IMG/VR virus record: IMGVR_UViG_2721755646_000011
Strand: one strand, 5' to 3'
Length of the DNA: 64,000 nucleotides
From: a virus
Lineage: Duplodnaviria; Heunggongvirae; Uroviricota; Caudoviricetes
The translations under genes and the position numbers were made by a program. Positions 45,660-46,007 of this stretch are shown here, one piece after another. Positions within the stretch are counted from its first letter, which is position 1, and every line of letters begins with the position of its first letter. The notes under the pieces are model-generated. The model was not told the DNA's origin. It was given only the letters and a program-made list of their open reading frames with translations, and did no database searches.

Positions 45660-46007
45660 TCAGGCCAGCGGTGGAGTCTTCAGAGAACCCGTAATTATTC
45701 CCGGTAGTTTTCCTCTGTAGGTTATCAACACATCCTGCGCCTCTAAAATTACGGGGCGCTTTTCCGGCAACGGACCATCCCCTTCACATAACCCGGCAGC
45801 AACATCCATGAAAAACTGCTTCGCCTGCTTTTTCGCCTCAGCTTCGTAAAACTCCAGCGTGGCACCTTCAGTACGGTCAAGACTAATCGCCACATCTGGC
45901 AACAACAGTGACGGATACCCACCAATTTCCGGTGCCACAGTAACAGTAATCTTATCCGGGTAATTATTTATCCCTTTAACAACCAGTTCGTATTTTTTCT
46001 TCATCAC
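45660..46007 (-). CDS. hypothetical protein between holin and endolysin
   Basis: 115-aa ORF, no recognisable motif, tightly packed between S and R. Confidence 0.4.
   Translation of the reverse strand: MMKKKYELVVKGINNYPDKITVTVAPEIGGYPSLLLPDVAISLDRTEGATLEFYEAEAKKQAKQFFMDVAAGLCEGDGPLPEKRPVILEAQDVLITYRGKLPGIITGSLKTPPLA

Follow-up and report, generated by a model that had tools for sequence, protein, structure and literature searches.

A YdfR/DUF1327 family gene inserted between the holin and endolysin genes of a lambdoid late region

Holin and endolysin genes usually lie side by side, and we asked what to make of a further ORF that sits tightly between them in a lambdoid lysis cassette. The cassette is part of a 64,000-nt stretch of viral DNA (IMG/VR record IMGVR_UViG_2721755646_000011), which is called the window below. 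A first-pass annotation, made from the letters alone, had described the ORF as a soluble-looking 115-aa product with no recognizable motif and had suggested that it was either a lysis regulator or a moron co-expressed at lysis. It had proposed homology and structure searches as a check, and had named a common conserved gene of no relevance to lysis as the outcome that would speak against its reading. The comparisons described here support a late-expressed, moron-like accessory gene rather than a lysis regulator; the gene belongs to an annotated family of unknown function and is not an unrecognized lysis gene.

The homology search placed the product in the YdfR/DUF1327 family, an assignment that we regard as nearly certain, and the statement that it had no recognizable motif was wrong. 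It matches the curated Pfam family PF07041 (DUF1327) with E=5.5e-46 and 155.2 bits, against a cut-off of 25, and covers profile positions 1-92 of 93. It also matches PHROG 406 ("unknown function") with E=3.8e-64, and the 100%-identical copies in Escherichia coli O157:H7 carry the PGAP/RefSeq name "YdfR family protein". Prophage Sp9 of E. coli O157:H7 Sakai matches the window at 100% identity, and the 1.4-kb segment from the holin gene S through the ORF to the endolysin gene R is 100% identical to many O157:H7 chromosomes. Databases already list the gene, the family it belongs to and where it lies in the prophages of K-12 and O157; a literature search for ECs1783 found no papers. The window protein matched no NCBIfam model, no holin family in Pfam or PHROG, and no credible PADLOC defense model (the best was a candidate model, at 12.9 bits and E=0.021). 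The ORF is far beyond chance, because these Pfam and PHROG matches are joined by a dN/dS of about 0.23-0.30 for its N-terminal domain, a rough Nei-Gojobori estimate against the homologs of phages 2H10 and mEp460. With a ratio of this size, the domain is under purifying selection and so is maintained.

The ORF list gives 115 codons on the minus strand (45660..46007), counted from a GTG. Because the N-termini of the homologs, the RefSeq length and the spacing of the Shine-Dalgarno element agree, translation most likely starts instead at the ATG at 46004: every homolog begins with M-(K/T/N)-x-x-Y-E-L, and the RefSeq length for ECs_1783 is 345 nt. Use of the in-frame GTG at 46007 would add one residue. 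The first-pass count of 115 therefore holds for codons, whereas the likely product has 114 aa. The features of the locus are collected in Table 1.

Table 1. Features of the lysis cassette and its surroundings, in the order of transcription; positions are those of the window.
Feature	Position	Strand	Basis
NanS-p-like esterase (DUF1737 + SASA + DUF6645)	46374-48284	-	Pfam
Class II holin S, phage 21 S type, 71 aa, dual starts Met1/Met4 (MYQMEK...)	46009..46224	-	PF04971, PHROG holin, hydropathy
Shine-Dalgarno GGAGAG, 7 nt 5' of the DUF1327 ATG, within the 3' end of the holin gene	46012..46017	-	sequence
YdfR/DUF1327 family CDS, 114 aa, ECs_1783 of Sakai prophage Sp9	45660..46004	-	ORF list, PF07041, PHROG 406, RefSeq
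DUF1327 N-terminal core domain, aa 1-74, predicted beta-beta-beta-alpha	45783..46004	-	AF2, homology
C-terminal module B, aa 75-114 (...EKRPVILEAQDVLITYRGKLPGIITGSLKTPPLA), and stop codon	45660..45782	-	alignment, pLDDT
Insert relative to the VT2-Sakai cassette: DUF1327 from codon 2, spacer, first three R codons	45601..46000	-	blastn
Spacer, 50 nt, AT-rich (34% GC), DUF1327 stop to R start	45610..45659	-	sequence, GC
SAR-type lysozyme R, 177 aa	45076..45609	-	PF00959, PHROG 7 endolysin, hydropathy
Ant-like gene (P22_AR_N + ORF11CD3) between R and Rz	44236..44805	-	Pfam, PHROG 524
Rz i-spanin with embedded Rz1 lipoprotein (about 43677-43862)	43615..44082	-	PF03245; Sakai ECs_1786/1787

The minus strand of the window is a canonical lambdoid late region, in the order Q antiterminator, two tRNAs, NanS-p-like esterase, hairpin, holin, DUF1327 ORF, lysozyme, Ant-like gene, tiny membrane ORF and Rz/Rz1. 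The claimed position between a pinholin and a SAR endolysin was confirmed by the match of the upstream gene to PF04971, "Bacteriophage P21 holin S" (E=8e-33), and by the lysozyme match of the downstream one. The N-terminus of R is weakly hydrophobic and Gly/Ala-rich (KD17 maximum 1.69, residues 5-27), and R carries an E-x8-D-x5-T motif, read by eye from the sequence; both fit a SAR endolysin. Only 4 nt separate the S stop codon from the DUF1327 ATG. On the other side of the gene, the spacer holds no obvious Shine-Dalgarno element for R and folds no better than shuffled sequences (z-score +0.83). An Rfam scan found no family inside the gene or the spacer, and inverted repeats there are weak. 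A consensus scan, which is weak evidence, found no promoter- or terminator-like site flanking the gene on its own strand. The Ant-like gene (GC 46%), which VT2-Sakai has too, is a second accessory insert of the same lysis cassette.

Two further elements of this region deserve mention. A strong terminator-like hairpin with a 12-bp stem and a T-run (46263-46291, minus strand), which phage Evi has too, lies between the NanS-like esterase and holin genes, and lysis-gene expression therefore presumably needs Q-mediated read-through. Between the Ant-like gene and Rz, a strongly hydrophobic 48-aa ORF (44090-44236, minus strand; ECs_5722 in Sakai; KD17 maximum 3.04) encodes a small membrane protein that, from its character, would make a more plausible lysis modulator than the DUF1327 product does.

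The description of the product as soluble-looking was borne out. There is no transmembrane segment in 17- or 19-residue Kyte-Doolittle windows, for which the maxima are 1.15 and 0.89 (neighboring holin, 2.14); the protein is acidic (pI 5.5; N-domain 5.1) and is predicted to be soluble. In the full-length AF2 model the N-terminal domain is predicted with confidence, whereas confidence is low from residue 74 on: residues 74-114 lie below a pLDDT of 50 and are predicted to be disordered. With a more diverse alignment the N-domain reaches a pLDDT of 88.7 and a pTM of 0.78, with predicted strands at 5-14, 18-27 and 38-43 followed by a long helix at 50-74. This is the sole part common to the whole family, and in our reading the 74-residue domain, a three-stranded sheet with one long helix, is the conserved working part. 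The tail, module B (...EKRPVILEAQDVLITYRGKLPGIITGSLKTPPLA), is nearly invariant in alignment columns across the Escherichia subfamily, and the module is missing in K-12 YdfR, in mEp460 and in all distant homologs. The structure search thus gave a confident domain prediction, and neither fold nor family comparisons gave a match that would assign the protein a function or a specific biochemical activity: fold scores for the N-domain were low and scattered over unrelated superfamilies (dsRBD-like, RNase H-like, HicB N-domain, Rv1738). A dsRBD identity was considered and rejected, as the protein is acidic and lacks the first helix of that fold, and as comparisons with Pfam, PDB sequences and BFVD gave no match. 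The dsRBD-like "KKQAK" stretch, likewise rejected, lies two turns into the helix of an acidic domain and reads RRSVR in K-12 YdfR.

The family is built of shuffled modules, and we observed five forms: a stand-alone N-domain (72-76 aa; in phage Evi and in members outside Escherichia), the N-domain with tail B (114/116 aa; the window allele), the N-domain with B and a helical module C of about 70 aa (176/183 aa; phage 2H10), the N-domain with other short tails (Qin, mEp460), and C'+B without the N-domain (P0151). The DNA of the window allele is that of the 2H10 allele minus about 487 bp, comprising module C and the next intergenic region, and the deletion junction sits exactly at the window stop codon. 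The family is very small, since a profile search of 1.84 billion representative proteins returned only 93 DUF1327 clusters. As to the common conserved gene that had been named as speaking against the first-pass reading, common and conserved both hold: the gene has a blastn match in 3158 of 5426 complete E. coli genomes (58%), with up to eight copies per genome. Matches to the Escherichia-type subfamily were found in E. coli, Shigella, E. albertii and E. ruysiae only, apart from two MAG records for which contamination with E. coli is the probable source. Distant members occur in Sodalis ligni, Serratia, Pantoea piersonii and metagenomes, and N-domain identity across Enterobacterales is 25-40%.

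Some public records of the gene are irregular. K-12-type ydfR loci appear in MAGs labeled Veillonella parvula and "Bacillota bacterium" (L021, L023), which are almost certainly mis-binned E. coli contigs. Public assemblies contain many rearranged alleles, among them frameshift fusions of holin and DUF1327 (P0010, P0068, P0126); in P0040 a deletion fuses DUF1327 to the ANT C-terminal domain of the Ant-like gene and removes R, and P0001 has an internal duplication. These rearranged alleles indicate that decay and recombination are frequent at the S/R junction of cryptic prophages.

To see what the cassette looks like without the gene, one need go no further than the same Sakai strain, where the late region of VT2-Sakai (prophage Sp5) runs NanS-p, S, R, ant, Rz, has no DUF1327 gene, and places the R start 4 nt past the S stop. 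In blastn comparison with VT2-Sakai (L032), the window aligns at 93% over 46271-46001, through S to the ATGA past its stop codon, and again at 98.9% over 45600-43500, from R codon 4 through ant and Rz; nothing in VT2-Sakai aligns with the intervening stretch of about 400 bp (45601-46000). Base composition changes with it, from 54-55% GC in S and R to 45% in the N-domain and 34% in the spacer. Among phage records, 434 have a phage-21-type holin and 101 have DUF1327, the latter mostly Stx1a- or Stx2c-converting phages, H-19B, BP-4795, YYZ-2008, mEp460 and 2H10. By toxin type, 41 of 47 Stx1a phages and 15 of 17 Stx2c phages with the holin also have DUF1327, compared with 2 of 124 Stx2a records. 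In DUF1327-less sister phages the holin is 96% and the endolysin 99% identical. An essential lysis component would be present wherever its cognate holin and endolysin occur, and this gene is not. Phages with essentially identical holin and endolysin lyse without it, so that the gene is dispensable, and the DUF1327 protein is very probably no core lysis component.

Nor is the family tied to lysis genes. A look-up of contigs encoding the distant 72-76-aa homologs found them always in late-operon orientation, in the tail M/L slot (L003, L005, L006, L027, L028, L031), the tail L/K slot (L029, L030), the tail I/J slot (L008, L009), between the tail chaperone gene gpT and the tape-measure gene (L025), between Q or HicAB and the holin (L010-L012), or directly after Rz/Rz1 (L007). 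Sodalis, Serratia and Pantoea prophages carry theirs in tail modules. These slots outside S/R are classical accessory-gene slots of lambdoid phages, and the family is mobile across late-operon positions.

Our preferred reading is that the gene is a late accessory insert whose product is not a lysis protein and binds a host macromolecule such as RNase E/G through its N-domain; we give this composite a rough probability of 0.4. In this reading the ORF encodes a soluble, acidic, cytoplasmic accessory protein, and its gene came in with a low-GC cassette of about 400 bp that entered precisely where S meets R in a lysis cassette of the phage 21 type. There it has captured the ribosome-binding site that serves R in insert-less cassettes. 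With this captured site and with neither promoter nor terminator of its own, the gene would be expressed late, on the Q-antiterminated late transcript that also yields holin and endolysin, as the anatomy of the operon suggests. The N-domain would most likely act by binding a host protein, for which RNase E, through its catalytic N-terminal half, and RNase G are the candidates, possibly with RNA, and RNA turnover might be tuned in late lytic growth or upon prophage induction.

Lambdoid morons, among them lambda bor and lom and the morons of HK97, are additional genes lodged among conserved late genes, and often have a deviating GC as well as a promoter and terminator of their own. The DUF1327 gene resembles them in being present or absent between near-identical neighbors, in its lower GC, and in its occurrence in several late-operon slots. 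It differs from them in its late-operon orientation and in that the consensus scan, weak evidence as it is, detected no promoter or terminator; for these two reasons its expression probably belongs to the lytic cycle and not to the prophage state. Of the first-pass suggestion of a moron co-expressed at lysis, the insertion and, by inference, the late transcript stand, whereas the transcription signals of a classical moron were not found.

Phage-encoded modulators of RNase E include T4 Srd, T7 gp0.7 and phiKZ Dip, and the host has RapZ and RraA. RNase E/G is the sole candidate host target with data, and these come from K-12, where the Qin prophage has the order essQ (holin), ydfR, rrrQ (lysozyme), rzpQ/rzoQ. 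YdfR (b1555) is of the same Pfam family and occupies the same position between holin and lysozyme as the window gene. BLASTP aligns the two proteins at 46% identity (E=1e-22) and only over aa 1-74; the beta3-alpha N-domain is common to both. Their C-termini are unlike each other: K-12 YdfR has a 29-residue tail (KVESYLQHQYSFKIENPANKHERPHHKYL) and its gene overlaps rrrQ, whereas the window protein ends in the 40-residue "EKRPVILEAQ...GSLKTPP" module and is followed by the 50-nt spacer.

Our literature search found DUF1327 named in a single paper. The one experimental lead comes from Göpel et al. (RNA Biol 2026; PMC13232886). In that work, a two-hybrid screen that used RNase G as bait recovered YdfR residues 1-72, which correspond to the conserved N-domain, three times; full-length YdfR was two-hybrid positive with Rne1-597, FLAG-Rne1-598 co-eluted with Strep-YdfR, and DNase-resistant nucleic acid co-purified with Strep-YdfR (PMC13232886). 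Overproduction of YdfR caused no growth defect and changed few transcripts (PMC13232886). As RNA co-purifies, the association with RNase E could be RNA-bridged; the acidic pI of the window protein is not what one usually finds in RNA-binding proteins. Should the K-12 result carry over, the window protein would be a small phage protein on the catalytic half of the enzyme, like RapZ and Srd (PMC13232886). It differs from the known modulators in having no sequence or fold relation to them and in coming from a temperate lambdoid prophage; moreover, overproduced K-12 YdfR barely alters the transcriptome, and an effect on RNase E activity is only putative. Carried over in this way from a 46%-identical homolog, an RNase E mechanism for the window protein is, to us, rather doubtful.

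Other reports on ydfR are harder to place. One listing gives an unexplained 3-fold effect of ydfR overexpression on the streptomycin MIC. An envelope-integrity phenotype of a ydfR mutant is cited in PMC13232886; the main text of the screen cited there does not mention ydfR, and the phenotype could stem from polarity of the resistance cassette on the lysozyme gene next to it. In Qin-type phages (L002, L015, L016), the cold-shock genes cspB, cspF and cspI crowd the transcriptional neighborhood of the S-ydfR-R cassette, and the reported cold induction of ydfR is probably explained by read-through.

In most of the loci with distant homologs, a small convergent gene lies 12-41 nt past DUF1327; it follows directly in L003, L004, L007-L012, L014 (Evi), L025 and L027-L031, and we noted further such loci in L016 (2H10 3000-3266), L018, L019 and L033. 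Coliphage Evi has the pair between S and R (3001-3540), and the rho-independent terminator that belongs to its convergent gene directly abuts the stop codon of DUF1327. In 2H10 the 183-aa DUF1327 gene is accompanied by an unannotated convergent 88-aa ORF, which is also present in L019, and the convergent 90-aa ORF of E. ruysiae is 84% identical to its counterpart in L033. The partner families include phrog_25324 (about 99 aa, 8 loci) and phrog_18578 (about 185 aa, 3 loci), together with several unrelated small helical ORFs; they are mutually unrelated, and none of the proteins matched Pfam, NCBIfam or PADLOC. These convergent neighbors come closer to the classical definition of a moron than DUF1327 does. 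The two genes may form a two-gene accessory cassette, or DUF1327 may have an insertion hotspot beside it. In the literature that we searched, we found no description of DUF1327 moving between late-operon slots with convergent cargo.

An alternative to our reading follows from these neighbors, namely that the window gene is the orphaned half of a two-gene cassette, in which DUF1327 works with, regulates or neutralizes a convergent partner that was deleted in Sp9. The recurrence of partner families, the pairing in most non-Escherichia loci and some E. coli phages, the Evi terminator at the DUF1327 stop, and the derivation of the window allele from the 2H10 arrangement by loss of about 487 bp all speak for it. 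We nevertheless consider it unlikely, as partners from unrelated families fit an insertion hotspot beside DUF1327 better than a specific pair, and none matches a known toxin, defense or regulator model. Further, Sodalis L005/L006, Qin, mEp460 and the abundant 114/116-aa Escherichia alleles are partnerless yet intact and under purifying selection. No remnant of a partner gene (phrog_25324 and others) was found in the window.

The convergent genes also invite a bolder version of the RNase E idea. DUF1327 might be a factor of a new kind in temperate phages: while late genes are expressed it would dock, with RNA, on the catalytic half of RNase E/G, and it would travel with antisense cargo through lambdoid late operons, so as to protect the long late transcript or resolve the conflicts between sense and antisense RNA that the convergent inserts create. 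In Stx1, Stx2c and other EHEC prophages it would then influence expression of the late operon and with it that of toxin and lysis genes. We regard this as a long shot.

The other first-pass suggestion was that of a lysis regulator, and in its strongest form DUF1327 would act in trans on lysis timing, modulating the pinholin or the release or activation of the SAR endolysin from the cytoplasmic side. Accessory lysis regulators, such as antiholins and the SAR-endolysin regulator of phage Mu, do occur in other phages, and they are membrane or membrane-tethered proteins. The DUF1327 gene shares with them its place inside a lysis cassette beside a SAR endolysin, a place that is kept in Qin, Sp9, mEp460, 2H10, PhiR42_1, Evi and Stx1/Stx2c phages. 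The fixed S-R position in hundreds of Escherichia prophages and the overlap with R in Qin are points against our preferred reading, and the position and tight spacing, with close translational coupling to S and in Qin also to R, could still reflect a lysis-linked role. The product, however, has neither a hydrophobic segment nor a transmembrane or amphipathic anchor, and the gene is missing from the normally lysing sister cassettes described above. Its homologs lie in tail modules and beside other holin types, and overproduction of K-12 YdfR gave no lysis or growth phenotype (PMC13232886). On these grounds the suggestion of a lysis regulator was not upheld, and we think a trans-acting role of this kind distinctly improbable.

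A lysis effect could also arise mainly in cis, with the protein secondary, if the insert parts R from the S-proximal ribosome-binding site and so changes endolysin dosage or timing. The GGAGAG element that serves R in VT2-Sakai does serve DUF1327 in the window, where R sits behind an AT-rich spacer with no recognizable Shine-Dalgarno element, and this AT-rich leader upstream of R is conserved in the cargo-carrying cassettes of 2H10 and Evi. We find such an explanation very improbable: purifying selection acts on the coding sequence, the N-domain has been kept from genus to genus at non-lysis positions, and in Qin the ydfR reading frame runs through the R leader region to overlap rrrQ (ATGA), which keeps the coupling.

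That the gene is a functionless hitch-hiker, a decaying remnant persisting in a recombination-prone junction, is hardly credible given a dN/dS well under 1 for the N-domain, its conservation across Enterobacterales, and intact copies in plaque-forming phages (mEp460, 2H10, Evi, Stx phages), even though many alleles are truncated, fused or rearranged, many E. coli prophages with the gene are defective, and the window allele itself derives by deletion from the 183-aa form.

Returning to the reading of a late accessory insert, its interest lies in the fact that the gene is common in E. coli and, in many Stx1- and Stx2c-converting phages, lies beside genes for toxin and virion release. If the association with RNase E is genuine and general, DUF1327 would be the first factor of lambdoid prophages to be directed at RNase E, and the stability of the late transcript, Stx output and lysis timing could be affected. 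If RNase E has no part in it, the locus still shows, as a clean case from nature, how cargo can enter the S/R junction and leave lysis intact.

Upstream of the lysis genes, the Rfam scan also yielded two prophage sRNAs: STnc100 at 48433-48641 (minus strand, 175 bits) and AgvB (anti-GcvB) at 48372-48431 (plus strand), the latter at 56.6 bits, barely over the gathering score. Both are flanked by the tRNA genes (48754-48827 and 48911-48983) and the NanS-like esterase gene.
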